Source of the DNA: Minisyncoccota bacterium
GTDB lineage: Bacteria; Patescibacteriota; Minisyncoccia; Phycocordibacterales; PALSA-1337
Reading direction: 5' to 3'
NCBI GenBank assembly: GCA_041671485.1
Contig: JBAZBL010000002.1
Coordinates: 9,320 to 73,319, forward strand
Length of the DNA: 64,000 bases
Numbering within the stretch: position 1 is the first letter of the stretch; each line of letters opens with the position of its first letter. The position numbers and the translations under genes are program-made. Below, piece by piece: positions 15,260 to 35,414 of the stretch. The notes beneath the pieces are model-generated. The model was not told the DNA's origin, did no database searches, and worked only from the letters and a program-made list of their open reading frames with translations.

Positions 15260-15284
15260 ACGGTTTTTTAAAGATATTTATAAT

Positions 15285-15503: not shown

Positions 15504-15771
15504 ATGAAGTTTTTGTCCGGCGGGGTATAGGAGATAAATTTCTCCCAATTACATATTCAATAGACACAGACATTATTTTTTGTCCGTGTTCCGTAAGTTC
15601 TTCAATCCATAACTGAAGAACCTCCTTGGCTTTTCTTTTTGCCTCTGCGAAAGTTCTGCCGAAAGTGACGCAACCTGGAAAGTCAGGAAAAGAGACTTCG
15701 TAACAACCTTTTTTATACGGTTTGAAAATGGCATTATAAGTCATAGTTGTTTTTGGTCCAATTAATTTCAT
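15484..15771 (-). CDS. hicB: HicB-family antitoxin (N-terminal UPF0150-like domain)
   Basis: YEVSFPDFPGCVTFGRTFAEAKRKAKEVLQLWIEEL is typical of HicB. Overlaps the hicA start by about 20 nt. Confidence 0.5.
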   Translation of the reverse strand: MKLIGPKTTMTYNAIFKPYKKGCYEVSFPDFPGCVTFGRTFAEAKRKAKEVLQLWIEELTEHGQKIMSVSIEYVIGRNLSPIPRRTKTSYATANC

Positions 15772-16034
15772 AGATTAATTCTACCTTGGATATTTCAAAA
15801 AAGTCAAGGTTCTGATACATATCCAAGAAAATAATAAGCTTCAACAATATGGTACTTGTCTTTGAGGTATATGCGCATTTTTTTCAGATCTACTTTCCAG
15901 TTATCTTGAGTGGTCCCAAGATGCAGATCTTGACCATTTATAAATACAATGTCTGATACTTTTACTTTATCAATAAGAACATTATTGCATGAGAACCAAG
16001 AGCGGGATTGCTAACCAATCAGTCCTAGTTATTT

Positions 16035-16727
16035 CTATGACAAAAACGGATTGTAGCTGATACTTCGATCATACACATCAATACCCTCCGCTTTTTTGAG
16101 TCTATTCACAATCACATATGTAACCGGTGTAAGAATTACCTCATAGACAACTTTTGCAATGTAACCTGATAAGATAAGTATTAGGAGACTTGAGAAAGGT
16201 ATAGTTCCGGCAAATGCAATAATGCCAAAAATAAGGCTATCTACTCCTTCACCCACAATTGTTGATCCAATAGTCCTCATCCATAGATGTTTACCATTGC
16301 TCCAAATCTTCATTCTTGAAAGGACATAGGAGTTACTAAATTCTCCTACAAAATAGGCGATGATTGATCCGAATACAATTCTTGGCACTGTTCCCAAAAT
16401 CATTTCATATGCAGTCTGATTTTGCCAAAACGCTGGAGCTGGAAGTGCTTGAACTAGCCAATAACAAAGAGCCATGAAAACTAGTGCAACAAATCCTGAC
16501 CAGATTATTTTTCGAGAAGCCTTATATCCGTAGACCTCGGTTAAAATATCACCGAAAATATAACTAATCGGAAAGATAAATATTGCACCAGCAAACACAA
16601 ACGGTCCTATCTGCACAAGTTTTACAGCAACAGTATTTGAAATCATAAGAACGACGACAAACAAAATTGCTATGTAAATAAAGTACTTGCTATTGCGAGA
16701 AATGTCTGTATGTGGTTCCGTTTTCAT
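16035..16727 (-). CDS. Queuosine-precursor transporter family membrane protein (YhhQ/DUF165-like)
   Basis: Polytopic protein with the FPISYIFGDILTEVYGYK motif characteristic of the YhhQ/VUT family. Confidence 0.6.
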   Translation of the reverse strand: MKTEPHTDISRNSKYFIYIAILFVVVLMISNTVAVKLVQIGPFVFAGAIFIFPISYIFGDILTEVYGYKASRKIIWSGFVALVFMALCYWLVQALPAPAFWQNQTAYEMILGTVPRIVFGSIIAYFVGEFSNSYVLSRMKIWSNGKHLWMRTIGSTIVGEGVDSLIFGIIAFAGTIPFSSLLILILSGYIAKVVYEVILTPVTYVIVNRLKKAEGIDVYDRSISYNPFLS

Positions 16728-16790
16728 ATTTTTTGTATAATTTTGTATAATGACTATATGGTACAATAAGATTAGCCTTTTTACAAAATA

Positions 16791-17507
16791 ATGACTTTAA
16801 ACAATTATGATAAATTGGCGGCGACTTACAAAAAATCAGATATCAAGCCTGATAAGCAATTTTCTATTCTCCCCACAGTATTAGGCATAATCGGCTACCC
16901 ATGCGGTAAAGTCATTTTAGATCTTGGTTGTGGTGATGGATTTTTCACTCATGCACTAGCTTCTCTCGGAGCAAGGCATGTTATAGGGATTGATAATTCA
17001 AAAGAACAAATAAGGCTGGCAAATGCTAACCCTAGCGAACATGTCACCTTTCAATACGGAGATATATTCAAAGACATGTTATCACCAGCTGATATTATCC
17101 TTTCACCGTTTGTGGTTAATTATGCCAATTCTGTACAGGATATCGAATTTCTGTTCGGAAATATCATGCGCGTTTTGTCTGAAAGAGGAAAGGTAATACT
17201 AGTTGTCGATTTACCAAAAGGCGAAAATCTGAAAAAATTCGGAAGCGTAAAAATACTACAAGGACCACCAATAGATGGTACAAAAATCAAGATCGATTTA
17301 TATAATTCCGATGAATTGATTTGTACTCTCTTCTCACATTACTTTACACCAGCTACTTTAGAAAACGCCCTGAAAAAAGTTGGATTCAAAAATATTATTT
17401 GGCATAAGACAATCATTTCGGAAGAAGGTATAGAAAAATTTGGAATAGAATTCTGGAAAGACTACTGTGATAATTCTGAACTTGGATATGTAAGTGCTGA
17501 GAACTAG
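16791..17507 (+). CDS. Class I SAM-dependent methyltransferase
   Basis: Motif I VILDLGCGDGFFT. Confidence 0.6.
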   Translation: MTLNNYDKLAATYKKSDIKPDKQFSILPTVLGIIGYPCGKVILDLGCGDGFFTHALASLGARHVIGIDNSKEQIRLANANPSEHVTFQYGDIFKDMLSPADIILSPFVVNYANSVQDIEFLFGNIMRVLSERGKVILVVDLPKGENLKKFGSVKILQGPPIDGTKIKIDLYNSDELICTLFSHYFTPATLENALKKVGFKNIIWHKTIISEEGIEKFGIEFWKDYCDNSELGYVSAEN

Positions 17508-17512
17508 TTTTC

Positions 17513-18190
17513 CTACACTGTATTAGGTTTGATTCTGTACATTCTCCATAGATGTCCTATGTCTTCGATTTCAATAAATCTTTCAATTTTATACCCATAT
17601 TTTGAAACCATCTTTTCAAACTTTTCAAAATCACTTGTACCCTTGAAATTAATATGAGTCATAATTATGATGCCAGTACTGGTCAAATGCTTTCCAACCT
17701 CAGCAAAAAATCGCCTATGAAGTCTATATTCTGGATCATACAAAGATGACTCAACAATTCCTTCAATAGGATAATCAGTAATCGGTAAATTGGCTATTAC
17801 TATGTCGAATTTTTCATCTAGTTTTAGAGCCGAAAATAGATCACTTTGCAAAATAGTCGCCTCAGATTTAACACAATTCAATTCGATATTTTCTTTAGCA
17901 CACGAGACTGCTTCTGGATTTATATCTAAACCAACAGCTTTACGCGCCCCCCTTATAACAGCCTGAATCGTTTGGACACCGGTACCAGTTCCGACATCGA
18001 GAACCGCCAATCCTTTAAGGTCACCAAAAATTATATGGAGCTTTTCCGATGTTCTAGAGAAATTACTTCTCGGTGGAAAAACATTCTTGCAAGTTTTTAT
18101 CTTAACCCCATCGATGTCAACAATCTCACTTTTCTGATTTTTTATTTCTTTAAGAAATTTTTGGCTTAATTCTGGATTTATTTTTTTCAT
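17513..18190 (-). CDS. SAM-dependent methyltransferase (small-domain MTS/HemK-like)
   Basis: VLDVGTGTGVQTI motif I. FDIVIANLPI resembles the N/D-PP-Y/F motif of N-methyltransferases. Confidence 0.55.
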   Translation of the reverse strand: MKKINPELSQKFLKEIKNQKSEIVDIDGVKIKTCKNVFPPRSNFSRTSEKLHIIFGDLKGLAVLDVGTGTGVQTIQAVIRGARKAVGLDINPEAVSCAKENIELNCVKSEATILQSDLFSALKLDEKFDIVIANLPITDYPIEGIVESSLYDPEYRLHRRFFAEVGKHLTSTGIIIMTHINFKGTSDFEKFEKMVSKYGYKIERFIEIEDIGHLWRMYRIKPNTV

Positions 18191-18348
18191 AAGATTTTTA
18201 CTAATCTTTACGGAATTCTACCATGATAAATATAATATATCATAACTTATTTGCCCCAAGTAAAATATATTATTTCATTAACATTCTTGCTCAAAAAGCT
18301 ATCTTTAATAGTTAGAAGGAGATGAAATGATGAAAATAGAGATATTTA

Positions 18349-19539
18349 TTATTTAACCCTAGACCTCCTCAAAAATGCAGGTATTGCTCCCCAATCATCG
18401 TCATCTTTCGTTTCTTTCTTTGGATCTGTCTTGATAGAAGTATCAGTTGAATCTGTCTTTTTTGATTCAGATATAGAGTTGAATATTTTGCCACGCTCTT
18501 TTTCTTTTCCTTGCGTAAGTGAAGAGATAGATGGATCGGTATCGGTAATGTTCTTTGTTTGTGCCTTTATAGTTGATAAGGCATTTTCAGGAAAACCAGT
18601 TGCAATGACTGTAATCTTGATCTCATTTTTCTTTAACTTATCATCACGAACTGTTCCAAATATGATCTTTGCTTCAGGATCAATAGATTCTGTGATCACT
18701 TTGGCTGCATCTTGGATTTCGAACATTGTTAGATCTTCGCCACCTGCGATAGAGAAGAGAACACCTTTTGCTCCTGCTATAGATACATCTAATAATGGGG
18801 AATTGATGGCTTGCTTGGCTGCTTCTATGGCTCTATTTTCACCAGAAGCAGAGCCAATGCCCATGAGAGCAGAGCCGGCATTTTCCATTACTGTTCTTAT
18901 GTCTGCAAAGTCTATATTTATGAGCCCAGGAGTTGTAATAAGATCTGATATACCTTCGACTGCTTGGCGCAATATTTCATCACACATACCAAAAGCATTT
19001 CTGACCGTTGTTGCTTTGTCTACTACTGTAAGTAGTTTGTCATTTGGTATTACAATGATTGCATCAACTTCTTTTCTCAAATCATCCAATGATGCATCTG
19101 CAATGCGTGATCTCTGTCTACCCTCAAAATAAAATGGTTTTGTTACTACTGCTACAGTGAGGCAACCAAGTTCTTTGGCAGTACGTGCTATGAGCGGACT
19201 AGCACCACTCCCTGTGCCACCACCTAGGCCACATGTTACAAAGACCATATCTGCACCCTTTACTACTTCTTGGATTTCATCTTTTGTTTCTTCTACTGCT
19301 CTTTTGCCTAGATCAGCATTCATGCCTGTACCCAATCCACGGGTTAGATTCTTGCCTATATGGATACGCTTCTTTGTTAGGGATCGATGCAAATCTTGTG
19401 AATCTGTATTGACAGCAATAAAATCGACTCCTTTGACTTTGCAATTAATCATATGATTTACTGCATTACCACCGGATCCTCCTATACCCAATACTTTGAT
19501 TCTTGCAAATGCTTCGATTTCTGGTGTTATATTTGGCAT
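18349..19539 (-). CDS. ftsZ: Cell division GTPase FtsZ
   Basis: Tubulin signature GLGGGTGSGASP, T7 loop, and an acidic C-terminal tail. Confidence 0.9.
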   Translation of the reverse strand: MPNITPEIEAFARIKVLGIGGSGGNAVNHMINCKVKGVDFIAVNTDSQDLHRSLTKKRIHIGKNLTRGLGTGMNADLGKRAVEETKDEIQEVVKGADMVFVTCGLGGGTGSGASPLIARTAKELGCLTVAVVTKPFYFEGRQRSRIADASLDDLRKEVDAIIVIPNDKLLTVVDKATTVRNAFGMCDEILRQAVEGISDLITTPGLINIDFADIRTVMENAGSALMGIGSASGENRAIEAAKQAINSPLLDVSIAGAKGVLFSIAGGEDLTMFEIQDAAKVITESIDPEAKIIFGTVRDDKLKKNEIKITVIATGFPENALSTIKAQTKNITDTDPSISSLTQGKEKERGKIFNSISESKKTDSTDTSIKTDPKKETKDDDDWGAIPAFLRRSRVK

Positions 19540-19640
19540 AAATGGAAATTGTATTTATAAGTCCAATACTATCATATGATTTTTTTGACGCAAGAAGTGC
19601 GCCCGAGGTCTACTCCGTGCAACTGAAACGAGGCTTCGAA

Positions 19641-20828
19641 TTATGGTAAAAACTGTTTTGTCCAGTCGGATATCTTTTTCCAAGTCCTTTTCAGAAGTGA
19701 ATTGAAAGTTGTCTCCAAACTGTTTGTATCTTGATCTGTATGAAGTCCCCAAATACAGAGTCCATATGCAACAGCCCAAGTTGCATCCTTGAATGAAGAC
19801 TTGCCATCGATCAGTCCCAAAGTACCAATGCGTGAAGGTAGTTTGAGAGCAGCACGAGCCATAGTATCGATAGAGTTGAGTGCCGATCCACCACCAGTAA
19901 TTATGATACCAGCAGGTAGAAGACCGTTTCTGCCAATTTTCTTCAAATGAACTTCGATGAGTTCAAATATGTCAGACAGACGAGCTCCAACAATCTCTTC
20001 GAGTTTCTTTCTCGGGAAAGTGCTTCCCGTGATTGCACCAATCTTGATTTGCTCGGCTTCTTCGAGTGGTACTTTGAGACCGAGAGCAATATCATTTGTA
20101 ATATCTGTTGAACCGATAGGGAATACTTCTAGAGATGTTGGTATATTGTTTTCGAATACTGCTATAGATACTGTTTCTGCACCAATATTTGCAAGAACAC
20201 AGCCAGCAATCTTTTGAGTTTTTGATAATGTTACAAATCCTGCTGCAACTGGTGCTGCCATAATATCTTCTACTTCTATACCAGCTTCGTTCACTGCTTG
20301 GATCAGATCAGAAAAATGATGATCGAGACAAGTTATAAATAGCATTTTGAGCTCGAGTTTATTACCTTTCATACCTTCTGGTTTGCCCAAGACTGGGTTG
20401 CCATCTATCTTATAGAGAAGTGGTATTGCATATATTATCCTTCTATTTGCAATGAGGGCATGAGGAATGTCTTTTTCGCATTGACTCTGCAATCTTTGTA
20501 TATCCAATGATGTTATCTCTGCATCAGCCCTAGAAGTAACTATAAAACTCGAAAGAGATGTGCTAGATAAACCTATGCCACCTATGCCTATAAAAGCTCT
20601 TCGAATCTTTTGATTTGCCTTTTCTTCTGCAATAGATATTGCTTTCTTGATACTATATACAACATCTTCGACATTGGTTACATAGCCATGTCGTAGACCA
20701 CGAGTCTCGGCCATACCAGTCCCAAGGATCTTTGGGAATCCCTTTTCATTTTTTTCTCGGGTATCAGTTATGACAACTTTCGTTTGATAAGTTCCTATAT
20801 CTATTCCTGTAATGATATTGCGCGACAT
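19641..20828 (-). CDS. ftsA: Cell division protein FtsA (actin-like ATPase)
   Basis: N-terminal IITGIDIGTYQTKVV and an actin-fold ATPase. Immediately upstream of ftsZ. Confidence 0.85.
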   Translation of the reverse strand: MSRNIITGIDIGTYQTKVVITDTREKNEKGFPKILGTGMAETRGLRHGYVTNVEDVVYSIKKAISIAEEKANQKIRRAFIGIGGIGLSSTSLSSFIVTSRADAEITSLDIQRLQSQCEKDIPHALIANRRIIYAIPLLYKIDGNPVLGKPEGMKGNKLELKMLFITCLDHHFSDLIQAVNEAGIEVEDIMAAPVAAGFVTLSKTQKIAGCVLANIGAETVSIAVFENNIPTSLEVFPIGSTDITNDIALGLKVPLEEAEQIKIGAITGSTFPRKKLEEIVGARLSDIFELIEVHLKKIGRNGLLPAGIIITGGGSALNSIDTMARAALKLPSRIGTLGLIDGKSSFKDATWAVAYGLCIWGLHTDQDTNSLETTFNSLLKRTWKKISDWTKQFLP

Positions 20829-21184
20829 ATTTTCTTTTCGAATACATCCATTCTACTGCCATGATCATATCCTTTCAAGTGAGCACAACCGTGGATAAAT
20901 AGATATACAAAAAAATTATTGTAACTTCGTCCAAATTGTTTTGCCTGTTTCCTAGATTCACTCGTGCATATATATATCTCACCTTGACTTTTGGAGAGTG
21001 GAAAACTCAATATATCTGTTGGCTTATCTTTGCCACGATATATCTTGTTTAGGAGCTTGATCCTGGAAGGTGTGGTTACAATCAGATTGAGATCGTATGA
21101 TTTTCCGAGGACGAGATTTCTAATAACATCAAAATCAACCTTAGGCATGGTTGATTTAGTTTCATTTATTATTGTTATAGACAT
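20801..21184 (-). CDS. ybeY: Endoribonuclease YbeY (rRNA maturation)
   Basis: HGCAHLKGYDHG matches the H-x3-H-L-x-G-x2-H zinc motif. Confidence 0.7.
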   Translation of the reverse strand: MSITIINETKSTMPKVDFDVIRNLVLGKSYDLNLIVTTPSRIKLLNKIYRGKDKPTDILSFPLSKSQGEIYICTSESRKQAKQFGRSYNNFFVYLFIHGCAHLKGYDHGSRMDVFEKKICRAISLQE

Positions 21185-21423
21185 TATCTCCTTTTGACTT
21201 TTATAGGGGCTTTGCCTTGCTTAATGAGTTCCGCTAGATTTGCTCTTTTTATGATCTTTTTTAGTGTACATTGTTTGATTTTGTAATGTGATTGGGTACG
21301 ACTACTATATCGGAGTGATCTCATACGAGGTATTACACCAGCACTTTGAACTTTCCTAGAAAAGCGTCGCAGTATGCCTAGATTGTTTTCGTTTGGATTC
21401 TTATTTATTTGTACGTTTAGCAT
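21184..21423 (-). CDS. rpsU: 30S ribosomal protein S21
   Basis: ILRRFSRKVQSAG plus a basic C-terminus. Start taken at an internal Met (MLNVQINK) of the 91-aa ORF. Confidence 0.55.
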   Translation of the reverse strand: MLNVQINKNPNENNLGILRRFSRKVQSAGVIPRMRSLRYSSRTQSHYKIKQCTLKKIIKRANLAELIKQGKAPIKVKRR

Positions 21424-21459
21424 GAAGAAAATATTAACACAAACATTATATGTATGCAA

Positions 21460-22710
21460 TTATTGTTTTGACCAGAATTTTGTCTCTATCTTTTTCATAT
21501 ATTTTGCCAATTCATCTAAGGAAACAGTCTCTTGGGAACGAGTATCTGTATCTCTTACAATTGCAGTGTGTTCTACGGCTTCTTTCTTGCCAATAACTAT
21601 AGTATATGGAGTATGATATCTTTCGATAGATGAAACTTGTGCTCCAAGACGGTCTTTTGCGAGTGATACATATAAAGGTACTTTTATTTGACGTAATCTC
21701 TCTATAATATCTAGGCATAAAAGTTTCGATTCGACACCGAGCTGAACAAATGAAGCTATTGGTCTTTTGATCTTTTTGACTATTTTTCTATTGTCAATAT
21801 TATTTGGTTTTACAACTATCGAAATACCTACACCAATAATATCTCTTTTCATACCTAGACGTTTCGCAAGACCACTATATCGCATACCTACTGCAAGTAT
21901 CTTTTGATCTTTTTTTGATTGGTTACGGTTGTTGTTTACAATAGAAAAGATTGTTTCGGTTGCATATTTACGATTTGCAATAAGAGAATTGTTGATAGTG
22001 TATGAAATATTTAGAGCTTCAAAGTATTCTAGAAGTTCTTCTAGATGTTGACGGCTATCCTCTGTCAAGAAATCAAGTGACTTTGGTGCCTGTTCATTTA
22101 GTGCTCTGCATGATTCATTGTTTGATGAGAGCAATTCGAAAGGATCTTTCTTGAATAATTGTCTACATTCTGGAGACATATTGTTTATATTTTTGCGATA
22201 GTATGCGGTGAGTTCTCGAGTAAATTTTGCAATTGAATCACGGTCTCCTGTACTATTTATCTCTACGACCGTATCTTTGTATCCTTCTTCGGAAAGTATA
22301 AGTCTAGCAACGTGGATAAGTGTTGCCTCGGCTATGCTACCAGAGGGACCCAATATTTCTAGATCTGCATAACGATGATATGCACTTTTTTTGCTTCCTC
22401 GAGAAGGATCTTTGAAATAGAGCATCACTGGTTGCAATAAAGTGTGCATATTTTGTTCATTGTATGTACGCAGTAATGCAGCTTTTTCTTCTACATGGAG
22501 TGGCAGTCGGCCGTGATATTCTGTTTCATCATCAATAGAATCATTTTCCAAAATGTCTTTTGTATAGTCCATATCAGTTTTTGTTATGGATACACTTTTT
22601 GTCGGTGTAAAACCATAATAAACAGCGATCTCTCCGATCTTGTCTAGGTTATCGCAAGCTATGAATTTTGTTTCTTTCTTTTTGTTCATAGATTTATTTG
22701 TCCTGGCCAT
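21460..22710 (-). CDS. hisS: Histidyl-tRNA synthetase-like class IIa aaRS
   Basis: Class IIa C-terminal anticodon-binding domain (YTIVIGKKEAVEHTAIVRD). VGMRYSGL resembles the HisRS GGRYDGL motif. Size 416 aa. Assignment to His is moderate. Confidence 0.55.
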   Translation of the reverse strand: MARTNKSMNKKKETKFIACDNLDKIGEIAVYYGFTPTKSVSITKTDMDYTKDILENDSIDDETEYHGRLPLHVEEKAALLRTYNEQNMHTLLQPVMLYFKDPSRGSKKSAYHRYADLEILGPSGSIAEATLIHVARLILSEEGYKDTVVEINSTGDRDSIAKFTRELTAYYRKNINNMSPECRQLFKKDPFELLSSNNESCRALNEQAPKSLDFLTEDSRQHLEELLEYFEALNISYTINNSLIANRKYATETIFSIVNNNRNQSKKDQKILAVGMRYSGLAKRLGMKRDIIGVGISIVVKPNNIDNRKIVKKIKRPIASFVQLGVESKLLCLDIIERLRQIKVPLYVSLAKDRLGAQVSSIERYHTPYTIVIGKKEAVEHTAIVRDTDTRSQETVSLDELAKYMKKIETKFWSKQ

Positions 22711-23309
22711 AAGGATATATTCGAAAATGGAAATAGTCGAAGTATTGGTCTACCTACAATGAGATTTTGGTCTAAGAGACCCCAAGCACGAGAATCGGAA
22801 CTTTGTATACGATTGTCTCCCATTACAAAATATTGTTCTGATCCGAGTTGTATAGTACTTGTGTCGTGTGATAATCGTGATTCGGAAATGAAAGATTCAT
22901 CTAGTACAAAACCATCTTTATTTTCTTCATTTATGATTGTGATTTTTCCATCCTGAATTTTTACAGTTTCATTGGGAAGGCCGATAATACGCTTGATATA
23001 ATATACTTTTTGATTGAAAGGATATTTAAAGACTATTACATCATCTCTTTGTGGTTCTTGAAATCTATATGATAGGCGATCTATTATGAGGAAATTTCCT
23101 GAATCAAATGTTGGGTCCATAGAAGCGCCATTTACGATGAATGGTTCGGCTATGAAGAATCTTATGGGTAGAGCAATCAAAAGAGCTATAATGATCGTTT
23201 TGGCCCATTCACGAGCAGAATTTCGCCAATTTAGGTCTTTTTTCTCTTCAATCTCTGGATTCATTTTACTATTGTAATACACTTTTCGGGTATTTGCAAA
23301 TTGATACAT
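22686..23309 (-). CDS. lepB: Signal peptidase I
   Basis: Box B GASMDPTF and VMGDNRIQSSDSR motifs. N-terminal TM helix. Confidence 0.8.
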   Translation of the reverse strand: MYQFANTRKVYYNSKMNPEIEEKKDLNWRNSAREWAKTIIIALLIALPIRFFIAEPFIVNGASMDPTFDSGNFLIIDRLSYRFQEPQRDDVIVFKYPFNQKVYYIKRIIGLPNETVKIQDGKITIINEENKDGFVLDESFISESRLSHDTSTIQLGSEQYFVMGDNRIQSSDSRAWGLLDQNLIVGRPILRLFPFSNISLWPGQINL

Positions 23310-23350
23310 ATTTCCATGAATGAGTTGATTTTATGTCAGTTTTCATTTAA

Positions 23351-23447
23351 TCTGGCTACAGAGTCGATTTAATCGGCAAAGCCAAAAGCACGGCTTAGTG
23401 TGCTCATTTGAACGTTGAAATAGACATATAAACTGGAGGATTTTCTC
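23351..23447 (+). promoter_or_regulatory. Conserved ~90-nt leader, copy 1 (upstream of pyrD)
   Basis: Shares agagtcgaYttaatcgRcaaag...tgaacRttgaaa with 25519-25598. Hairpin agcac/gtgct here; swapped arms in copy 2. Confidence 0.45.
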
Positions 23448-24347
23448 ATGATTACTCTCTCAAACGGCCATGCTTTCAAATACATGGTCGCTAGTGGTGC
23501 TCTAGCATTTGATGGCAAAGGCTGGTTTTGGGAACGACCACTGGTGTGGCTTGGTCTTATCAAGCCCGAACTTTTCACTGTCGTCATAAAATCTCTAACA
23601 CGTAACCCGCGTGCCGGAAATCTACGCTGGTGGAAACCATGGAATTGTGTTCGTCTGATTCCTGGTGGTTCGGTCAACAAAGTTGGTCTTACCAATCCTG
23701 GAATCGAATGGTGGTGCCGAGGAGTCGGTCCCAAACTCGATTTTAAGAAGTTCCCTACAGCCGGATCAATTTTCGGTGATGAAAAGGAACTGGTGGAAAT
23801 GGCGGAGATGCTCAATCGCTTCAGTCTCGTCGCGCTTGAAGTCAATGTCTCATGCCCGAATACCGGCCATGCAATCGAGCAGGCAGAGATGGTGGTAAAC
23901 AGCATGAAGGCGGTCAAACATGTTTCGTGTCATCCTGTCATCGTCAAAGTCTCGGCTGATCAAGACTATCTGATCATTGCACGCGAACTTGTTGGAGTCG
24001 CAGAAGCGGTCTCTCTCAACAGCGTGCCGTGGAAAACAGTCTTCACCAATGGCGAGCAAACGCCTTTGGCTAAGCTCGAGAAACAAGTCGGTGGTGGAGG
24101 CGGAGGCGTCTCTGGCAAACCAGCACAGAAACACAACTGGGCGGCAGTCGAGAGCTTATCCAAACAAGGATCGCTCCCCATGATCGGTCCAAGCGTCATG
24201 GAATTCGAAGACATGAAAAAGCTCAGGAGACTCGGCGCAAAAGCAATCAGCTTCGGTGCGATTCATCTTCCAACAAAAGGGAAACCATGGACCCTATTTA
24301 CAAATCCATGCAAGCCAACATTGTTCATCGAAAAGGAAAACATGTGA
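23448..24347 (+). CDS. pyrD: Dihydroorotate dehydrogenase (class 1-like)
   Basis: ASGAL.FDG.G N-terminus, NPGIE, EVNVSCPNT active-site region. About 300 aa. GC much higher than the genome. Confidence 0.7.
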   Translation: MITLSNGHAFKYMVASGALAFDGKGWFWERPLVWLGLIKPELFTVVIKSLTRNPRAGNLRWWKPWNCVRLIPGGSVNKVGLTNPGIEWWCRGVGPKLDFKKFPTAGSIFGDEKELVEMAEMLNRFSLVALEVNVSCPNTGHAIEQAEMVVNSMKAVKHVSCHPVIVKVSADQDYLIIARELVGVAEAVSLNSVPWKTVFTNGEQTPLAKLEKQVGGGGGGVSGKPAQKHNWAAVESLSKQGSLPMIGPSVMEFEDMKKLRRLGAKAISFGAIHLPTKGKPWTLFTNPCKPTLFIEKENM

Positions 24348-25426
24348 AAGAAAACTCTGTAACTATCCCTCGATGGTTTGACCGCCATCTCCATATTCGC
24401 GATGGCGACATGCTCAAAATCGTTCTTCCGTTCACGCTCAAACAGCGTGCGACAGGAGCTATCATCATGCCTAACCTTACTGATCCGATCTCGGATATCG
24501 AAAAGGCGAGGGCCTATCGCAATCGGATAGAACACTTCCTTAGAAGGATTCTACCGTTAGGTTGTGGCTTCATTCCGTGCATGACGCTGTATTTGACGGA
24601 TCACACTGATCCTGAAGAAGTTGTGCGCGGATTCGAAGAAGGTGTTTGGAGGGCGGTGAAGCTCTACATGGCCAATCAAAAAGGCCAAGGCGGAACTACC
24701 GGTTCTGCGCACGGCGTGAAGAATCTTTTCGGTCGCTATCCGGTGTTCAAGGCAATGGAGAAACACAAAATCCCGTTGCTCGGACACTTCGAAGCAGTCG
24801 AAGAAGATGTTGACGAATTCGATCGAGAGATCGTCTCCGTCGAGCGTGACCTCATGCCCATCCTCAAGTCCTTCCCAGGACTGCCGGTGGTCTTCGAGCA
24901 TATCACGGACGGACGCGCGGCCGACTTCGTCGCAGAAGTCGATCACGACATCCATGCGACCGTGACTGCCCATCATCTGATGATCAATCGCAATGCCATG
25001 TTCTGGGGCGGTATGAATCCTGGCCACTACTGCAAGCCTGTGCCGAAGCGCGAAACGCATCGTGCAAAGGTCCGGCAGTATGTGACTTCGGGTAATCGTC
25101 GCTTCGGGGCGGGAACTGATTCCGCTCCTCACGATGAAAGTGTTAAGTCTCGTTGCTATGGTTGCGCGGCTGGCATCTTCACTGCTCTATCGGCCGTCGA
25201 GCTCTACACGATGACCTTCGACGAAGACGATGCACTCGAACATCTCGGTCCATTCCTTTCCGAAAACTTCCTCGACATCTATGGTATGGAAGTGAGTTCG
25301 AATACGATGACGATCGAACGGCAAGGTTGGCATCTTCCGGAAAGTGTTTCGAGTCAGCTTATCGGCACACCGACCGTCAAAGTTTTCAAAGGAGGTGCAG
25401 ATCTTCCGTGGAAACTCGTTGGTTGA
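24308..25426 (+). CDS. pyrC: Dihydroorotase, E. coli PyrC-type (class II)
   Basis: Near-colinear similarity to E. coli PyrC (DRHLHIRDGDMLK, IIMPNL, LYLTD, VVFEHIT, GTDSAPH, CAAG). Confidence 0.85.
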   Translation: MQANIVHRKGKHVKENSVTIPRWFDRHLHIRDGDMLKIVLPFTLKQRATGAIIMPNLTDPISDIEKARAYRNRIEHFLRRILPLGCGFIPCMTLYLTDHTDPEEVVRGFEEGVWRAVKLYMANQKGQGGTTGSAHGVKNLFGRYPVFKAMEKHKIPLLGHFEAVEEDVDEFDREIVSVERDLMPILKSFPGLPVVFEHITDGRAADFVAEVDHDIHATVTAHHLMINRNAMFWGGMNPGHYCKPVPKRETHRAKVRQYVTSGNRRFGAGTDSAPHDESVKSRCYGCAAGIFTALSAVELYTMTFDEDDALEHLGPFLSENFLDIYGMEVSSNTMTIERQGWHLPESVSSQLIGTPTVKVFKGGADLPWKLVG

Positions 25427-25449
25427 AATCAAAAACAAGAACCTTAACC

Positions 25450-25485
25450 CAGCCCTGACATTAATTTGTCAGGGCTGATTTTTTG
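25450..25485 (+). terminator. Rho-independent terminator
   Basis: cagccctgaca-ttaatt-tgtcagggctg followed by TTTTTT. Confidence 0.6.
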
Positions 25486-25518
25486 TGTGCTTTACATTTT
25501 AATAAAATTATAGTAATG

Positions 25519-25598
25519 TTCCGCTTAGAGTCGACTTAATCGACAAAGGCTAAAGTGCTGCCTTAAAGCATACAACTGAACATTGAAAGGAAAATACC
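25519..25598 (+). promoter_or_regulatory. Conserved leader, copy 2 (upstream of putative pyrE)
   Basis: See 23351-23447. Confidence 0.45.
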
Positions 25599-26315
25599 AT
25601 GAAGCCAATCATTCCATTGCCAGGGGAAGATCTCCTGGAACTTGGGAAGCGTTGCAACGCAGTCTATGTCTGTCCGAAAGTCGGCTCTGAACGCAAGGGA
25701 CCTCTGGTCGCCTACGCAGGAAAGGATAAATACGGGAGGAATCTCGTCGGAGACATTTACTTCAACTTCCGGCGGATCGAGGTTCACCCAAAAGTGGTCG
25801 AGGCATTCGCCGAAGCCGCATGCCAGAAACTCCGCGATCAAGGTCTCATCGATGTGTTTGATACTGTCTGCGGAATTCCGCAAGGCGGTCGGACGTTCGG
25901 TCAGATGCTTGCGCTCGTCGCTGGTAAGCGGTTCGCATATGCGGACAAGAAGCCGAAACCGACGGAGGCGGGCAAGAAACAGGAATACACCTGGGACCTC
26001 TCGCAGTTCGATTTCGAGCAAGGCGAACGCGTTGCGGTTGCGGAAGATGTTTTTAACAACTTCCAGAATACCGACAATACTCTCGCAGAAATCGCCGTCA
26101 CTGGTGCGAACATCGTGCTTCTCGTCGGGGCGCTTAACCGCTCTCCGATCTACAGCACGTCCTACAAGGGTCTGCCGGTAATTGCTTCCATTCGTGAAGC
26201 GTATCCGGAATTCGAACAGGATGATCCTGCGGTTGCGAACGATATCGCTGCCGGCAAGCTCGAACTCGAAGTGAAAAAGAACTGGGCACGTCTCTGCGCA
26301 GCAATGCAACAGTAA
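25599..26315 (+). CDS. pyrE: Type I phosphoribosyltransferase, probable orotate phosphoribosyltransferase
   Basis: PRTase-fold motifs (VCGIPQGGRTFG; VAVAEDVFNNFQNT matching the PRPP-binding acidic patch). Sits between pyrC and pyrF. Product assignment rests on context. Confidence 0.45.
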   Translation: MKPIIPLPGEDLLELGKRCNAVYVCPKVGSERKGPLVAYAGKDKYGRNLVGDIYFNFRRIEVHPKVVEAFAEAACQKLRDQGLIDVFDTVCGIPQGGRTFGQMLALVAGKRFAYADKKPKPTEAGKKQEYTWDLSQFDFEQGERVAVAEDVFNNFQNTDNTLAEIAVTGANIVLLVGALNRSPIYSTSYKGLPVIASIREAYPEFEQDDPAVANDIAAGKLELEVKKNWARLCAAMQQ

Positions 26316-26345
26316 CTCTCAAACAAAACGAAAGGAAAACAGAAC

Positions 26346-27086
26346 ATGCAAAAGACACTGACACCGGAGGAACGATTGATCGTTGCCGCCGACTTCAAGC
26401 CAACGGCTCCCAACGGAAAGGACTGGGTGAAAGCCCGAGTTCTCGCACTGGCCGACAGCCTCAAAGGGACCGGAGTCTACCTCAAGGTGAACTCCGCCCT
26501 TCGAGCTTGCGGCTACAATCTGATCGGCGAAATCCAGTCGCGCGGTTTGCGGGTCTTCGCGGACCTCAAACTCTTCGACATCAGCGAGACTCTGTCCACA
26601 GACGGCGTCTTGCTGAAGGAAGCGAAACCGGAACTGCTCACCACTGTCTGCGTCGCGGGAGTTACCGCAATGCAGGCTTTGAAAGCCGAACTGCCCGACA
26701 CGGAAGTGCTCGGTGTGACGGTTCTTACGAGCCTCAAGGATGCCGATACGCAAGCGATGTTCACCTGCTCAACTGAGGAAGCCGTCATGCGGTTCGCCCA
26801 AGTCGCGGCAGATGCGAAGATCGATGGACTCATCTCGTCTCCCAAAGAGGCGGAAGTGCTCCGTGCGAAATTCGGCATCGTCTTGTCGCTCAACACACCG
26901 GCTATTCGGCCGACGTGGGCGATCGTTCCTGGCGATGATCAGAATCCCGAGCGGATCATGACTCCCGCAAAGGCCATCAAGGCCGGTGCGGATCGTATCG
27001 TGGTCGGACGTCCGATCGTGAAGGCCGAAAAGCCCTACGACGCGGTCATGCGGACCATCGAGGAAATCGCTTCGGCTATGGTGTAG
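26346..27086 (+). CDS. pyrF: Orotidine-5'-phosphate decarboxylase
   Basis: LIVAAD, DLKLFDI, and IVVGRPI motifs. Confidence 0.8.
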   Translation: MQKTLTPEERLIVAADFKPTAPNGKDWVKARVLALADSLKGTGVYLKVNSALRACGYNLIGEIQSRGLRVFADLKLFDISETLSTDGVLLKEAKPELLTTVCVAGVTAMQALKAELPDTEVLGVTVLTSLKDADTQAMFTCSTEEAVMRFAQVAADAKIDGLISSPKEAEVLRAKFGIVLSLNTPAIRPTWAIVPGDDQNPERIMTPAKAIKAGADRIVVGRPIVKAEKPYDAVMRTIEEIASAMV

Positions 27087-27104
27087 CCAAGTCCTCAGCA
27101 ACAA

Positions 27105-27138
27105 TTAGCTCGTTCACTCCGGTGGCGAGCTAATTTTT
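27105..27138 (+). terminator. Rho-independent terminator after pyrF
   Basis: ttagctcg...cgagctaa stem followed by TTTTT. A second hairpin (aaaacccca-agt-ggggtttt) lies at about 27175-27197. Confidence 0.55.
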
Positions 27139-27363
27139 CATAATTAACTTTTTTAGTGTTTATGATAAATAACAAAAACCCCAAGTGGGGTTTTTGTGCG
27201 TTTCTGTGACATCATATGATACACAGAGTGTTTGCCTGCCATCAACACGCTGTCGATAGAATCATCTTGGTCGCAACTCCAATGACTCGCAGGCTTAACT
27301 ACAAGATAGTATAGACAAAAAATCTTACTTGTCAAGTATTTGTTTTAGACTTATAATCGCATC

Positions 27364-27960
27364 ATGTCATATACAATAGTTGGTCTAGGCAATCCGGGTG
27401 CAGAGTATGAAAATACACGTCACAATACTGGTCGTATTGTTTTGAATGTGATTGCAGATGAATTCTCGAAAAAAGACTTTGAATCAGATAAGAAAATAAA
27501 TGCATTGATAGTAGAAGGGAAGATAGGCAAAGAAAAAGTAGTTTTTGTGGTACCCGATACATTCATGAATAATTCTGGCAAAGCAGTTGGAGTATTGATC
27601 AAAAGCAAAAAGGCAGCAGAAAGACTTGTCGTTATCTATGATGATTTCAATTTACCACTCGGAAGAATCAAAATCTCTTTCAATAGAAGTTCTGGTGGGC
27701 ACAATGGTATAGAATCTATAATCAAAGCAATAAAGACTGAAAGCTTTATCCGTATTCGTATTGGCACTGCTCCAGAGAATGCAAAAGGAGAAGCAAAAGT
27801 ACCACACGGTGATGAGAAAATAGAGAAATTCATTCTTGGATCATTCAAACCAGATGAATTGAAAACATTAAAAAAGGTTGCAAATAAATGTACTGAAGCC
27901 GTAGAGATGATAGTGAGAGAAGGAAGGCAAAAAGCCATGAGCGTTTTTAACGCTATTTAG
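27364..27960 (+). CDS. pth: Peptidyl-tRNA hydrolase
   Basis: N-terminal IVGLGNPGAEYENTRHNTG and GHNG motifs. Confidence 0.85.
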   Translation: MSYTIVGLGNPGAEYENTRHNTGRIVLNVIADEFSKKDFESDKKINALIVEGKIGKEKVVFVVPDTFMNNSGKAVGVLIKSKKAAERLVVIYDDFNLPLGRIKISFNRSSGGHNGIESIIKAIKTESFIRIRIGTAPENAKGEAKVPHGDEKIEKFILGSFKPDELKTLKKVANKCTEAVEMIVREGRQKAMSVFNAI

Positions 27961-27998
27961 TATTTTTTATACCCAAAATATCTGTCTCAAAAATAGAT

Positions 27999-29225
27999 TT
28001 ATTTTTTCTCCCCAGAAAAACTCAATGCCATTTTTTGTTCCTTTGGTTCGAATAGTGTTATCTTGAAATCATAAGTTTTACCCAATTCGAGAGTTTTCCT
28101 CAATTTTTCTTCAGAGCCAAATTCAGAAACATGAACCAAGCCTGCTACACCTTCTTCGATAGAAGCCAATGCACCATGCTTATTGAATTTGATAATAACT
28201 CCAGATATAGGCATATCCTTTTTGTATTTTTTACCTGCTTCTACCCATGGATTTGGCTTCAGTTGTTTTATCGATAGAGATATCTTGCCATCTTTGATCT
28301 CTATGATCTTGGCTTTGACTTTTTGTCCAACTTTTACAAAATTGCTTGGATTGTCTACGAGACCCCAGTCAATTTCTGATATATGTACCAAACCTTCCAT
28401 GCCTTCTTCTAGCTTTATGAATGCACCAAATTCTACGACACCTGTTATAGTACCCTCGACCTCATTGCCCACTTCGTATTTACTTGCTATTTCTTCTTTT
28501 TCTTTGAGTTCAGAACCCTTTTCAGAGAAAATAAGTTTGCCTTCCTTTGGGTCGGCGGTGATGATAGAAACCTGTAGTCTTGTACCAACGAGCTTCTTCA
28601 ATTCCTCGAGGATTTTGTCTTTGTCTCCGTCTGCTACTTTGGGATAATGTTCTGGTTTCAATTGTGATGCTGGAAGAAATCCAGTTATTCCTTGCCAATC
28701 GATAAGAAGTCCTCCTTTATTTGCTTCTTTTATCTGGAGATCGAGCATTTTCCTATCTTTGATTGCAGATTCTGCTTCATTCCATATGAGAGCTTGCCTT
28801 GCTTCCTTTAGAGACAGTTCGTAATAGCCTTCTTTATGTGCATTGTCTACTATCTTTGCTGCTACGATATCTCCAACATTGATCTTTTTTATAATATCGC
28901 GTGCAGTCAAAAACTCTTTACCATATATGATACCTGTACCAAATGGTGCAAGATCTATAAATACAGAAGACTTTTCTGTTGCTATCACTGGTCCCTCGAC
29001 CAAGTCACCAATCATCGGAGGGTTTTTGATCTGTGCAATAAGTTTACCCATTACGGTTGCCTTCTTTTCTTCGGCAATCCTCATTGCTTTGTCTTTTATC
29101 TTTTCCTTATCATCAGACTTTTTGTCAGAAACTTTTTTTGGAGCCTTTATCTCTATCTCTTTTTCTTTTGTCACTTTACTATCATCTTTCGAACCAGTCA
29201 GAGTTTCTCTTAATTTTTTGAACAT
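27999..29225 (-). CDS. rpsA: 30S ribosomal protein S1 (four S1 domains)
   Basis: Repeated S1 OB-fold motifs (G.V..I...GAFV.L..G..GL.H.SE). Confidence 0.75.
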   Translation of the reverse strand: MFKKLRETLTGSKDDSKVTKEKEIEIKAPKKVSDKKSDDKEKIKDKAMRIAEEKKATVMGKLIAQIKNPPMIGDLVEGPVIATEKSSVFIDLAPFGTGIIYGKEFLTARDIIKKINVGDIVAAKIVDNAHKEGYYELSLKEARQALIWNEAESAIKDRKMLDLQIKEANKGGLLIDWQGITGFLPASQLKPEHYPKVADGDKDKILEELKKLVGTRLQVSIITADPKEGKLIFSEKGSELKEKEEIASKYEVGNEVEGTITGVVEFGAFIKLEEGMEGLVHISEIDWGLVDNPSNFVKVGQKVKAKIIEIKDGKISLSIKQLKPNPWVEAGKKYKKDMPISGVIIKFNKHGALASIEEGVAGLVHVSEFGSEEKLRKTLELGKTYDFKITLFEPKEQKMALSFSGEKK

Positions 29226-32927: not shown

Positions 32928-35414
32928 ATGGCAAAAAAGAATGAAAATAATGAAATGAAGATAAGGCCGGTAAATACGGCCGGAGTTGTTTCGCGGTCTA
33001 TAACAACAGAGATGCGTGAGTCATTCCTCGACTATGCAATGTCAGTTATCACAGATAGGGCATTGCCAGATGTAAGAGATGGTTTGAAGCCAGTGCATCG
33101 TCGTATCTTATACGCAATGCATGAAAAAGGTTTGACGGCTTCGGTCAAATTTCGCAAATCTGCTGTCGTAGTCGGTGATGTACTCGGTAATTATCATCCT
33201 CATGGTGATGTAGCTGTTTATGATTCTTTGGTAAAGATGGCTCAAGACTTTACCATGCGATATCCTCTGGTACAAGGTCAAGGAAACTTTGGTACGGTAG
33301 ATGGCGACAATGCCGCTGCTATGCGTTATACAGAGTCCAGAATGTCCAAGATCGCAGCAGAACTCTTGCGAGATATAGATAAAGATACAGTTAACTTTCG
33401 TCCGAACTACGATGGTACCAAGAAAGAACCGATAGTCTTGCCAACTGCTGTACCAAACTTGCTCCTGAATGGAACGCTGGGCATAGCAGTCGGTATGGCA
33501 ACGAATATACCACCACACAATCTTCGTGAAGTTCTAGATGCAACTATGCATCTCGTAGAAGATTCGGGTGCAAGTACAGAAGATTTGCTCAAATTTATAA
33601 AGGGTCCTGATTTTCCTACAGGGGCCATCATGTATGGAGAAAAAGATATTCAACATGCATATTCTACTGGACGTGGTGGTATCGTTGTCCGTGGTGAAGC
33701 AGAGATAGTAGAAGACAAAAAAGGACAATTCCAGATCATCATAAGTTCTATCCCTTATAGAGTGAATAAATCATCACTTATTATGCGTATTGCTGATCTT
33801 GTCCGTGAAAAGTCTATAGAAGGTGTAAAAGCACTACGTGATGAATCTGATAAAGAATTGAGGATAGCGATAGACCTAAAACAAGGTTCATTCCCGGAAA
33901 AGATCTTGAATCAGCTTTACAAACATACACAACTCGAAGAGACATTTCATGTAAATATAGTTGCTCTAGTAGACGGTGTTCCTCACACTTTGGGCCTAAA
34001 GACAATATTAGAAGAATTTGTAGATCATAGGATAGAGGTTATACGTCGAAGAACAAAGTTTGACCTCAACAAAGCCGAAGAACGCGAGCATATACTTCTA
34101 GGCCTGAAAAAAGCACTCGATCATATAGATGAAATAATTACTCTTATACGTGCATCGAAAGATGTCCTAGAAGCTCATGCTGGCCTCATGAAGAAATTCA
34201 AGTTTAGTGATAGACAAGCAACAGCAATATTAGAAATGAAATTGCAAAGATTGGCAGGACTTGAGAGAAAGAAAGTTCTAGACGAATTGGAACAAGTACA
34301 AAAACTCATTATCGAACTCAAAAGTATTCTTGACAGTGATAAGAAAGTCCGTGGCATCATAAAGACAGAACTTTCAGATATTAGAGAAAAGTATGGTGAT
34401 GATAGGAGGACAAAACTGGTCAAACATGGTGTCAAAGAATTTAGTGCAGAAGACCTTATCGCTGATGAAGAATCTGTTTTGGTTTTGACAAAGGGTGGCT
34501 ATATAAAGAGAACTGATCCTTCGGAATATAGAAAACAAAAGAGGGGTGGTGTAGGTGTTATAGACCTAGATACAAAAGAAGAAGATTTCATAACTCATCT
34601 CGTATATGCAACAACTCACAATGATATTTTATTCTTTACCGACAAAGGCAAAGCTTATCAGATAAGGATGTTCGAAATACCAGAAGGCAAACGTGCCACA
34701 AAAGGCAAATCAATAATGAATTTTCTTTCTCTAGCAGATGGAGAAAGAGTGACTTCTATATTGCCTATGCCAAAAGACAAAAAAGTAGCAGAAGGTCTAT
34801 CACTCATGATGGTGACAAAGAATGGCACAGGCAAAAAGAGCTCGGCAAAATATTTTCGAGATGTACGAAGGTCAGGACTCATCGCTATCACTCTAGATGA
34901 AAAAGACGAATTGATCCAAGCATCATTTGTCACAAAGAGTGATGATATAGTCCTAGCTACAAAACAAGGTCAGTCAATACGATTCAAAGAAAGCGATGTT
35001 CGTGAAATGGGTAGAAATGCTTCTGGAGTGAGAGTTATCAAGCTCGATAAATCTGGCAAATCTGAAAGTGATGAAGTAATTTCTGCAGATATCGTTTCCA
35101 AGGATGCAAAAGATCCAGCATTGTTTGTCATGAGTGCAAATGGTTATGGCAAGAAGACAGAACTTTCTGAATACAAAACACAAAAGCGTGGTGGTTCTGG
35201 CATACTCACCATGAAAGTCACAACAAAGACTGGTCCACTAATATCTGCAAAAGCAATTGTAGAAGGAGATGAAGAGATAGTTGCTATGTCGAAGAAAAGC
35301 CAAGTAATAAGAGTTGATATCAAAGAAATTCCAACTCTAAGTAGAGCTACACAAGGAGTCCGTGTTATGAAGCTTCGAGAAGGGGATACTTTGGCGAGTT
35401 TGATTTGTTTGTAA
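32928..35414 (+). CDS. gyrA: DNA gyrase subunit A
   Basis: Active-site region AAMRYTE, QRR region, and C-terminal beta-pinwheel repeats. 828 aa. Confidence 0.9.

Follow-up and report, generated by a model that had tools for sequence, protein, structure and literature searches.

Four consecutive pyrimidine-biosynthesis genes at 23448-27086 of a stretch of Minisyncoccota bacterium DNA (contig JBAZBL010000002.1; the window below is the whole stretch analysed, 64,000 nucleotides) are organized as two self-contained transcription units, each consisting of a putative promoter, a leader RNA, two genes and a terminator. The genes all lie on the plus strand and follow one another as a pyrD-like gene, pyrC, a phosphoribosyltransferase (PRTase) gene whose product resembles orotate phosphoribosyltransferase (OPRT), and pyrF. 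Taken as a whole, our observations are best explained, and we think probably explained, by a modular pyr insert that came from a Patescibacterium richer in guanine and cytosine (GC), that belongs to a pool of units exchanged among such bacteria, and whose leaders are cis-regulatory. Horizontal acquisition of the block is supported, and we infer a GC-richer Patescibacterium as the most likely donor. The original prediction for this region had recognized the genes and their unusual composition; the two transcription units inside the block, each with a conserved pseudoknot leader, had escaped it.

Two self-contained transcription units

The elements of the two units (modules 1 and 2) are, in order:

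23325..23353, plus strand: putative promoter of module 1 (-35 TTGATT, 17-nt spacer, -10 TAATCT), from conservation
23358..23447, plus strand: leader RNA 1 (covariance model, 84.8 bits; direct repeat D3 with the second leader)
23448..24347, plus strand: pyrD-like class-1 dihydroorotate dehydrogenase (DHODH), 299 amino acids (PF01180, 66 bits, cutoff 27)
24344..25426, plus strand: pyrC, class II (E. coli-type, homodimeric) dihydroorotase, 360 amino acids (TIGR00856 pyrC_dimer)
25450..25487, plus strand: intrinsic terminator of module 1, CAGCCCTGACA...TGTCAGGGCTG and then a T run (terminator scan)
25491..25519, plus strand: putative promoter of module 2 (-35 TTTACA, 17-nt spacer, -10 TAATGT), conserved in locus L005
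25526..25598, plus strand: leader RNA 2 (covariance model, 68.8 bits)
25599..26315, plus strand: OPRT-like PRTase in the pyrE position, 238 amino acids (predicted fold, gene context)
26346..27086, plus strand: pyrF, orotidine monophosphate (OMP) decarboxylase, 246 amino acids (PF00215, 110.9 bits, cutoff 27; TIGR01740, 99.4 bits, cutoff 92.3)
27096..27140, plus strand: terminator hairpin of module 2, AACAATTAGCTCG...CGAGCTAATTTTT (inverted repeat I16)

The module 1 transcript is predicted to start at ~23359-23360 (AGAG), and the TAnnnT box found 6-8 nt before AGAG is kept upstream of pyrD at other loci. The terminators are likewise shared: that of module 1 is also found 3' of pyrC at many other loci regardless of which gene comes next, and that of module 2 also lies 3' of pyrF in L084, L031, L042 and L063. 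Similarity between the window and L084 ends at the T run, at ~27140, and the module 2 terminator appears to form the right end of the transferred DNA.

Across ~100 loci, module 2 mostly occurred without module 1 nearby, module 1 was often found alone, and the four-gene arrangement was seen in only a handful. Since the modules are found separately, each with its own leader and terminator, the unit of exchange would be the regulated two-gene transcription unit. What fills the pyrE/pyrF slot varies widely: other loci have a pyrF-pyrE fusion (L012:6116-7471), a Thermus-type pyrE (L008:10053-10721, L020:11332-11841), a pyrD abutting the odd PRTase, or a second type of pyrF ahead of the PRTase (L046:3452-5031, L061/L093-L095).

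A conserved pseudoknot leader precedes each unit

The leaders are ~70-90 nt long and share a hairpin (P1), a compact H-type pseudoknot with stems S1 and S2, a gap of 5-8 nt and a nearly invariant UGAACAUUGAAA box. In leader 1, P1 spans 23363-23377, S1 pairs 23379-23383 with 23392-23396, and S2 pairs 23387-23391 with 23400-23404, followed by the box GAACGTTGAAA at 23410-23420 and a Shine-Dalgarno sequence, GGAGGA, at 23435-23440. In leader 2, the corresponding elements are P1 at 25530-25544, S1 at 25546-25550/25560-25564 and S2 at 25555-25559/25567-25571, and the box GAACATTGAAA at 25578-25588 overlaps the AAGGA ribosome-binding site. Pairing in both stems is kept by two-sided changes between the two leaders (S1, AGCC/GGCU in leader 1 and AGGC/GCCU in leader 2; S2, AGCAC/GUGCU and GUGCU/AGCAU).

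A covariance model, R1, was built from 21 leaders and used to search 1.06 Mb on both strands. All of its 62 matches fell on the coding strand and directly upstream of pyr genes of five kinds, namely pyrD, the PRTase, canonical Thermus-type pyrE (L008, L020), the pyrF-pyrE fusion (L012) and a solitary pyrC (L015). At E <=0.01, the motif stood ahead of pyrD in 16 of 24 cases and ahead of the PRTase gene in 39 of 69, and some of the misses were visible variants. In the leader alignment 90% of cells were paired, versus 23-35% when the partners were slid, and every one of the 15 pairs showed changes on both sides, with none of 500 shuffles reaching the observed values. Examples are S1 positions 72:86 (CG 25, GC 22) and S2 positions 80:109 (AU 21, GC 19, GU 11). 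Both L1 and L3 are conserved, A-rich loops, and the 3' box hardly varies.

No Rfam 15 family, including the PyrR site, preQ1 and SAM-II, matched the leaders at gathering thresholds, and relaxing the search to E values of up to 10 per leader gave chance-level hits only. Our literature search returned nothing specific on a patescibacterial pyr cassette or on a pyr-associated RNA motif. A pairing of the P1 loop with the conserved GAACAUUGAAA box was rejected by eye, as the loop varies and the box does not.

The association of the leader follows the pathway and not any one gene, which argues for pathway-specific cis-regulation by a riboswitch or a protein operator. From the conserved pairing and gene association, the leader could be a metabolite-sensing riboswitch, and a protein-binding operator is just as plausible; each stands somewhat below even odds, and the probability that remains goes to a stability element or an element of another kind. 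The leader is retained at loci where a canonical pyrE fills the slot and the 238-aa PRTase is missing from the surroundings, which makes it unlikely that this PRTase acts on the leader as a PyrR-like regulator. In the riboswitch reading, candidate ligands are UMP or UTP, orotate, dihydroorotate, OMP and phosphoribosyl pyrophosphate (PRPP). We offer as a more tentative proposal that the leader might represent a new riboswitch class for a pyrimidine-pathway metabolite, and that every two-gene unit would carry it along as its own regulator; if so, the recipient Patescibacterium would gain a pathway segment that is already feedback-controlled.

Elsewhere in the window, the 5' region of a GC-rich open reading frame (ORF) at 1705-2940 closely resembles, at 1668-1707 (GAACATTGACAATAACCCCAAAACCCAGGAGTAATAGGTG), the part of the pyrD untranslated region that lies past the pseudoknot (GAACATTGAAATAAACCAACAAACTGGAGGA...ATG). 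In the donor lineage, the GAACATTGA box may serve more generally in translation or regulation.

Two of the four enzymes are strongly divergent

The four consecutive pyrimidine genes that had been called from the sequence were confirmed, with the qualification that the 'pyrD' is very divergent and the 'pyrE' non-canonical. In DHODHs the catalytic residue is the Cys of N-x-S-C-P-N in class 1 and a Ser in class 2, and the pyrD-like product carries the class-1 motif as NVSCPN, aligned to NISCPN of L. lactis PyrDB (1ep1, 48 bits). It did not reach the equivalog cutoff for assignment to subclass 1A or 1B (best NCBIfam score 82 bits versus 269), and a search beside pyrD, covering the window and the three loci that have gene tables but not whole genomes, found no pyrK. 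Identity to patescibacterial copies is 58-89%. These features point to a very divergent class-1-like DHODH in which the FMN and catalytic motifs are retained.

PyrC and PyrF fit their families well, as had been predicted for both. PyrC exceeds the TIGR00856 cutoff (305.7 bits versus 292.95, over profile positions 2-340 of 341) and is colinear with the solved E. coli-type dihydroorotases 4lfy and 1xge/1j79, of which its best relative is the Burkholderia enzyme (4lfy; residues 4-353 versus 33-371), confirming the call of an E. coli-type class II enzyme. Its motifs DRHLH, VKLY, GHFE, FEHIT and GTDSAPH align to the same motifs in 4lfy; presumably, as in the E. coli enzyme, they supply the binuclear-zinc ligands (HxH, a carboxylated Lys, two His and an Asp). 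We place the pyrC start at GTG 24344, overlapping the pyrD stop (GTGA), rather than at ATG 24287; homologues share this 4-nt overlap. The identification of pyrF as OMP decarboxylase likewise holds, with scores above the curated cutoffs; PyrF aligns to 3ldv at 92 bits, with the active-site D-x-K-x-x-D appearing as DLKLFDI against DLKFHDI.

The 238-aa PRTase had zero Pfam matches (Pribosyltran included), failed the NCBIfam pyrE cutoffs (pyrE_Therm, 26.8 bits versus 150.25) and gave a weak sequence match in the PDB (E = 0.09). Its AlphaFold2 model (predicted local distance difference test 70.8, with a confident core) was compared with the PDB by Foldseek, where the top 19 matches were OPRTases or UMP synthases (4ohc, 4paw, 9e5g, 2wns, 2aee, 2ps1; E 6e-8 to 3e-6; TM ~0.5) and adenine phosphoribosyltransferases came next. 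The family comprises ~313 proteins, of which the named ones are almost all patescibacterial, with 79-92% identity among the matches listed. The acidic pair E149-D150 is invariant and is followed by the loop [FY]NNFQNTD. At other loci a canonical Thermus-type pyrE (L008, L020) or the pyrF-pyrE fusion (L012) fills the same slot behind the same leader. Because the modelled fold matches OPRTases first and a canonical pyrE occupies this slot elsewhere, we read the protein as a probable OPRT, either non-orthologous or highly divergent. The earlier PRTase call therefore holds as regards a phosphoribosyltransferase with a predicted OPRT-like fold, and fails as regards membership in the canonical pyrE family.

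The block is the strongest GC-rich patch of the window

GC content is 0.522 across the island at 23448-27086 versus 0.349 and 0.366 in the immediate flanks, and coarse and fine profiles both showed a plateau of 0.49-0.60 over ~23500-27100 with a steep drop to 0.33-0.38 on either side. The rest of the window stands at 0.386. The predicted contrast with the flanks of 'roughly 20 points' was right in kind and slightly too large, the average being 16-17 points and the value for pyrF 22. At third codon positions, the GC content (GC3) of the four pyr genes is, in order, 0.50, 0.57, 0.60 and 0.70, the last being the window maximum, while 57 other ORFs gave 0.331 +/- 0.095 (z = 1.8 to 3.9). The next-richest 3.6-kb segments anywhere in the window all reach at most 0.487 GC. 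The island is thus the strongest GC3-rich patch of the window, though not the sole one.

Apart from the pyr quartet and the ORFs antisense to it, the island and its spacers contained no ORF, and none of the small ORFs in the pyrF-pth spacer was credible. The long antisense ORFs across the island each overlap a gene with family support, in agreement with their earlier dismissal as artefacts. The absence of pyrB and carAB from the window was also borne out: no match to aspartate carbamoyltransferase or carbamoyl-phosphate synthase was obtained among the 25 window ORFs of at least 300 amino acids, of which 23 were scanned directly and two, FtsZ (18349-19539) and a T2SSF gene (11841-12902), were named from the precomputed gene table of contig L111.

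Syntenic relatives lack the block or carry it elsewhere

The block lies between two genes whose composition is of the host type:

22686..23309, minus strand: lepB, signal peptidase I (PF10502, 146.9 bits; GC 0.345, GC3 0.245), left flank of the insertion site
27329-27357, plus strand: strong pth promoter (promoter scan, 11 of 12 matches)
27364..27960, plus strand: pth, peptidyl-tRNA hydrolase (PF01195, 179 bits; GC3 0.28), right flank of the insertion site

The GyrA encoded at 32928-35414 has one relative at 98% identity and then a wide plateau at 80-85%, whose members are named Patescibacteria, Taylorbacteria, Parcubacteria and Paceibacterota, identifying the host as a low-GC Paceibacteria-type Patescibacterium. 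At GyrA-anchored loci the order ftsZ, ftsA, ybeY, hisS-like gene, lepB, pth, S1, metallo-beta-lactamase-fold gene, gyrA is kept. In L115 (GyrA 84.5%), lepB on the minus strand adjoins pth on the plus strand at a distance of 137 bp, and in L114 (GyrA 84%) the hisS-like gene, pth and S1 follow in succession, both without pyr genes there. L084 (GyrA 79%) carries the same four pyr genes, but between pth and S1. The block is thus present, absent or placed elsewhere among relatives, and the proposal that it was inserted horizontally into the low-GC, reduced genome of a patescibacterial host is supported by syntenic relatives without it and by the adjacency of lepB and pth in L115.

The syntenic relatives have genomic GC contents of 40-55%, with values of 48-55% among them, and GC3 values from 0.3 to 0.86, so that GC-rich donors exist very close to the host. 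L114 and L115, which share the ftsA-gyrA order at 84-85% GyrA identity, have GC3 values of 0.5-0.86 versus 0.25-0.32 in the window; genomic GC has moved very fast inside this patescibacterial family.

A search for flanking direct or inverted repeats that could serve as att sites or target duplications gave none that was convincing, the sole meaningful repeat being the leader pair. The window also encodes a T2SSE ATPase, a T2SSF platform gene and a T4SS_pilin-like paralogue array (10682-12902 and 37305-39123), possibly a DNA-uptake or pilus machinery able to mediate the gene exchange proposed here. The 'hisS' beside lepB (21460-22710) reaches 132 bits versus the TIGR00442 cutoff of 287, has a weak catalytic-domain match, and encodes a divergent histidyl-tRNA-synthetase-like protein that is syntenic across relatives.

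The pyr genes diverge less at synonymous sites than housekeeping genes

PyrC alone has >120 database clusters at 66-90% identity. Every pyr homologue at 64-95% identity that carries a phylum name is patescibacterial, apart from three short contigs of 1.6-6 kb, and a few records are without a phylum. The exceptions, L005 (CAIQLG010000416.1), L026 (CAZBWF010000115.1) and P0348, sit in Lentisphaerae, Gammaproteobacteria and Chloroflexota bins, probably through mis-binning caused by their atypical GC. The same genes occur in hundreds of Patescibacteria, and this genome is not alone in having gained them. When cluster representatives were searched exhaustively, the patescibacterial PyrC clade fell into a single cluster, and the next full-length relatives were 43-48% identical, the named ones being Alpha- or Betaproteobacteria. 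The family may have an ancient proteobacterial-type root and an immediate source within the phylum.

GyrA failed as a control for less conserved housekeeping genes, being 80-85% identical across the group, and we therefore compared synonymous sites within pairs of syntenic genomes. Between the window and L084, nine co-linear housekeeping genes gave synonymous divergence (dS) values of 2 to >3 or undefined, with 0.43-0.51 codon identity at positions encoding the same amino acid, versus dS 0.93-1.08 and codon identity 0.58-0.61 for pyrD, pyrC and the PRTase; pyrF, at dS 1.77, was near saturation. L010, L011 and L014 showed the same contrast between pyr and housekeeping genes. Relative to its closest pyr copies the window has dS 0.36-0.57, with dozens of others at 0.5-1.1 (unsaturated), and dN/dS is ~0.07-0.1, showing that the pyr genes are under purifying selection.

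Several features distinguish the pyr genes from their surroundings across loci. In 62 of 63 loci they exceed the GC content of their flanks (0.529 versus 0.427, slope 0.32). Copies with host-like GC3 (0.25-0.30) do exist, in L024 and for pyrD of L014 (0.25), so that a high GC3 is no functional requirement; in L014 this pyrD stands beside a pyrC with GC3 0.50. Identity is mosaic from gene to gene, with pyrF at 90% and pyrC at 68% in L021, and 95.5% and 83% in L029, and the genomic context of the cassette differs at almost every locus. Hosts matching the island in GC are at hand in L007, a Kaiserbacteria genome (0.54), and L115 (0.55).

The high-GC donor of the original prediction is thus upheld in that the source was GC-richer than the host, whereas a conventional outsider becomes very unlikely, close homologues being patescibacterial and outside PyrC proteins ~43-50% identical. 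'Recent' applies to the acquisition only in a relative sense, with the closest sampled alleles at dS 0.36-0.57.

A model of modular exchange and its alternatives

We chart the following model. An insert of ~3.8 kb (~23322-27140) would have entered between lepB and pth of a low-GC Paceibacteria-type chromosome, its modules drawn from a pool of late-pyrimidine units that Patescibacteria trade with one another, reshuffle and replace. The donor may have had ~50-58% GC and been Kaiserbacteria-like or a close high-GC relative, and the copy would have drifted only partly towards host composition. Integration probably proceeded through DNA uptake and recombination, given that mobility genes are lacking. 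With these four enzymes the cell would be able to make UMP from carbamoyl-aspartate, dihydroorotate or orotate; as pyrB and carAB are not nearby, the precursors would presumably be obtained from a host or partner cell. The leader would tune translation or transcript fate according to pyrimidine status.

A number of observations weigh against this model or limit it. Because the cassette of L084 lies in a shared gene neighbourhood, the family may ancestrally have possessed it, with loss, relocation and allele replacement instead of a fresh gain. No integrase, transposase, tRNA or flanking repeat lies at the insert (the only tRNA of the window is at 55209), leaving the entry mechanism unmarked. 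Protein identity alone does not discriminate, and the case rests on synonymous sites and composition; dS was estimated by the Nei-Gojobori method (NG86), which is crude where compositions differ, and with the nearest sampled alleles still at the dS values given above, no donor is among those sampled. Random exchange does not fully account for a GC excess that points the same way in 62 of 63 loci; part of it may stem from the use of high-GC alleles as bait. Neither module promoter is listed by a sigma-70 consensus scan, both being weak consensus matches inferred from conservation. For the leaders, the nested folding energy is unremarkable (z ~-0.8 to -0.9), a non-significance expected for a pseudoknot, which is why we relied on covariation; no expression platform is evident, with no terminator or obvious Shine-Dalgarno-sequestering helix after the leaders. 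Finally, the PRPP loop of the PRTase is atypical, and its function as an OPRT is predicted only.

Vertical inheritance, with the high GC kept by a gene-specific force such as mRNA or codon selection or GC-biased gene conversion, would account for pyr GC lying above the flanks at nearly every locus and never clearly under the host, for a family-level relative, L084, with the cassette in the same neighbourhood, and for identities of 80-85%, which GyrA shows can be vertical in this group. It is at odds with the two closest syntenic relatives with long contigs, which are without the block, with a pyr dS far under the values that nine co-linear housekeeping genes give between the window and L084, and with the conserved, ameliorated copies at GC3 0.25-0.30, the gene-by-gene mosaicism and the shifting context; we judge it unlikely. 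The compactness and self-containment of the units, together with their variable location, would also suit cargo of a phage, an integrative element or a transposon. This we hold to be quite improbable, as protein-seeded scans of IMG/VR contigs yielded no relative, 50,697 phage records searched for distant DNA similarity gave no match, the island and spacers hold neither an extra ORF nor flanking repeats, and the called genes beside the cassette in the L002-L004 and P0001 contigs include no integrase or transposase Pfam family. Direct acquisition from a high-GC organism outside the Patescibacteria, such as a host cell of proteobacterial or actinobacterial kind, draws on the E. coli/proteobacterial class II type of PyrC, whose nearest outside clusters are Alpha- and Betaproteobacteria and whose best structural match is from Burkholderia. 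That affinity suggests an ancient origin outside the phylum, and a direct transfer of this kind has very little to recommend it given outside PyrC identities of ~43-50% versus 64-95% for hundreds of patescibacterial copies, a PRTase family whose named members are almost all patescibacterial, and a leader, promoter and terminators common to other patescibacterial loci.

An assembly or binning chimera, in which a foreign high-GC fragment was joined to a low-GC contig, could be suspected from the abrupt GC step at both borders, from the short cassette-only contigs mis-binned elsewhere, and from Logan contigs that end or start inside the island. These contigs (L109, L110, L112, L113) break at 24101, 26242 and 26948, two of them beginning exactly at 26948, which suggests assembly-graph branching from co-occurring, competing pyr alleles in the samples. 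Both borders are nevertheless spanned in assemblies independent of the window (ENA ERZ27249449, Logan SRR18595301 and Logan SRR6484324), which we reached via exact Pth and LepB protein look-ups; exact-sequence look-ups of PyrF and the 238-aa PRTase returned no record. The ENA contig L111 (ERZ27249449, k141_382806; 89 kb) matches window 12686-33309 at 100% identity. Also at 100% identity, Logan contigs cover the left border at 15072-26242 and 21244-24101, and L109 and L110 run from the 3' end of pyrF into pth, over 26948-29141 and 26948-28550. Because independent assemblies from three samples cross the lepB-pyrD and pyrF-pth junctions at full identity, mis-assembly, which the original prediction had singled out for checking at both borders, is excluded there, and similar GC steps occur within long contigs and complete patescibacterial genomes; the chance of a chimera is in our estimate negligible.

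Comparison with known systems

Horizontal transfer of metabolic genes is documented in groundwater Patescibacteria, including nucleotide-metabolism transfers such as thyA, though not of these pyr genes (PMC12455944). Like known genomic islands and operon transfers, the block combines a GC step, absence in relatives, discordant divergence and a metabolic gain by a reduced genome; it differs in having no integrase, tRNA or repeats, in having as its unit one regulated two-gene transcription unit, and in that the presumed donor shares its phylum with the recipient. Islands of this kind are fairly ordinary, and it is the modular organization and the uncatalogued pseudoknot leader that lift this one above the ordinary.

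The leaders can be set beside three kinds of regulatory RNA. In PyrR-attenuated pyr operons (Bacillus; RF00515), pyr genes also stand behind repeated conserved 5' leaders, one per unit, but the element here is a hairpin with an H-type pseudoknot rather than an anti-antiterminator stem-loop, has no terminator or antiterminator after it and no Rfam match; nor does the window show a pyrR gene. E. coli pyrC and pyrD are controlled by start-site switching together with a 5' hairpin that masks the ribosome-binding site. The same two genes, a hairpin at the transcript 5' end and translational control without a dedicated regulator would be common to both systems, whereas the 5' hairpin here excludes the Shine-Dalgarno sequence and is joined by an extra covarying pseudoknot. 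With the small pseudoknot riboswitches preQ1-I, SAM-II/SAM-V and guanidine-III the leaders share a pseudoknot size of ~26 nt, H-type topology with an L2 of 0 nt (1 nt in some leaders), A-rich conserved loops and a 5' UTR (untranslated region) position near the ribosome-binding site; they differ in giving no covariance-model match (E up to 10), in a 3' stem without the Shine-Dalgarno sequence and in their exclusive association with pyrD, pyrC, pyrE and pyrF. To our knowledge, no riboswitch class is known for de novo pyrimidine genes. The leader is thus a well-supported orphan motif with an unusually clean gene association.

Compared with canonical PyrE (TIGR00336/TIGR01367), the PRTase shares a predicted fold nearest to OPRT, the PRPP acidic pair and the slot beside pyrF; its loop reads AEDV[FY]NNFQNTD instead of D-D-x-x-T-T-G-G-S/T, its scores lie far under the cutoffs, and its family is almost entirely patescibacterial. 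Along with the very divergent DHODH, this OPRT-like enzyme is a candidate for biochemical study.

The prevailing view is that Patescibacteria rely on partner cells for their nucleotides. In the model proposed here, the last four steps to UMP would circulate among them as small, self-regulated, exchangeable units, with one insertion documented against syntenic relatives without the block, giving a picture of reduced genomes patching their metabolism. Such exchange would also account for GC-odd fragments that break assemblies and are mis-binned.

Other GC-rich patches of the window

The window as a whole is a compositional mosaic. ORFs with GC3 values of 0.47-0.65, on a background of 0.25-0.35, lie at 1705-5416, 6407-7072, 41618-43765, 46561-47586 and 49461-50003. 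Their remaining members were unmatched in Pfam, NCBIfam and PADLOC, the sole family match being at 3734-5416, a GHKL/HATPase_c_3 ATPase with weak resemblance to restriction or MutL-type proteins. Compared with the closest relative (L108:7111-10662, GyrA 98%), the genes at 39952-43765 are GC3-rich and 53-65% identical, versus 77-98% for their neighbours, marking a hypervariable patch that includes a 715-aa protein without a known domain.

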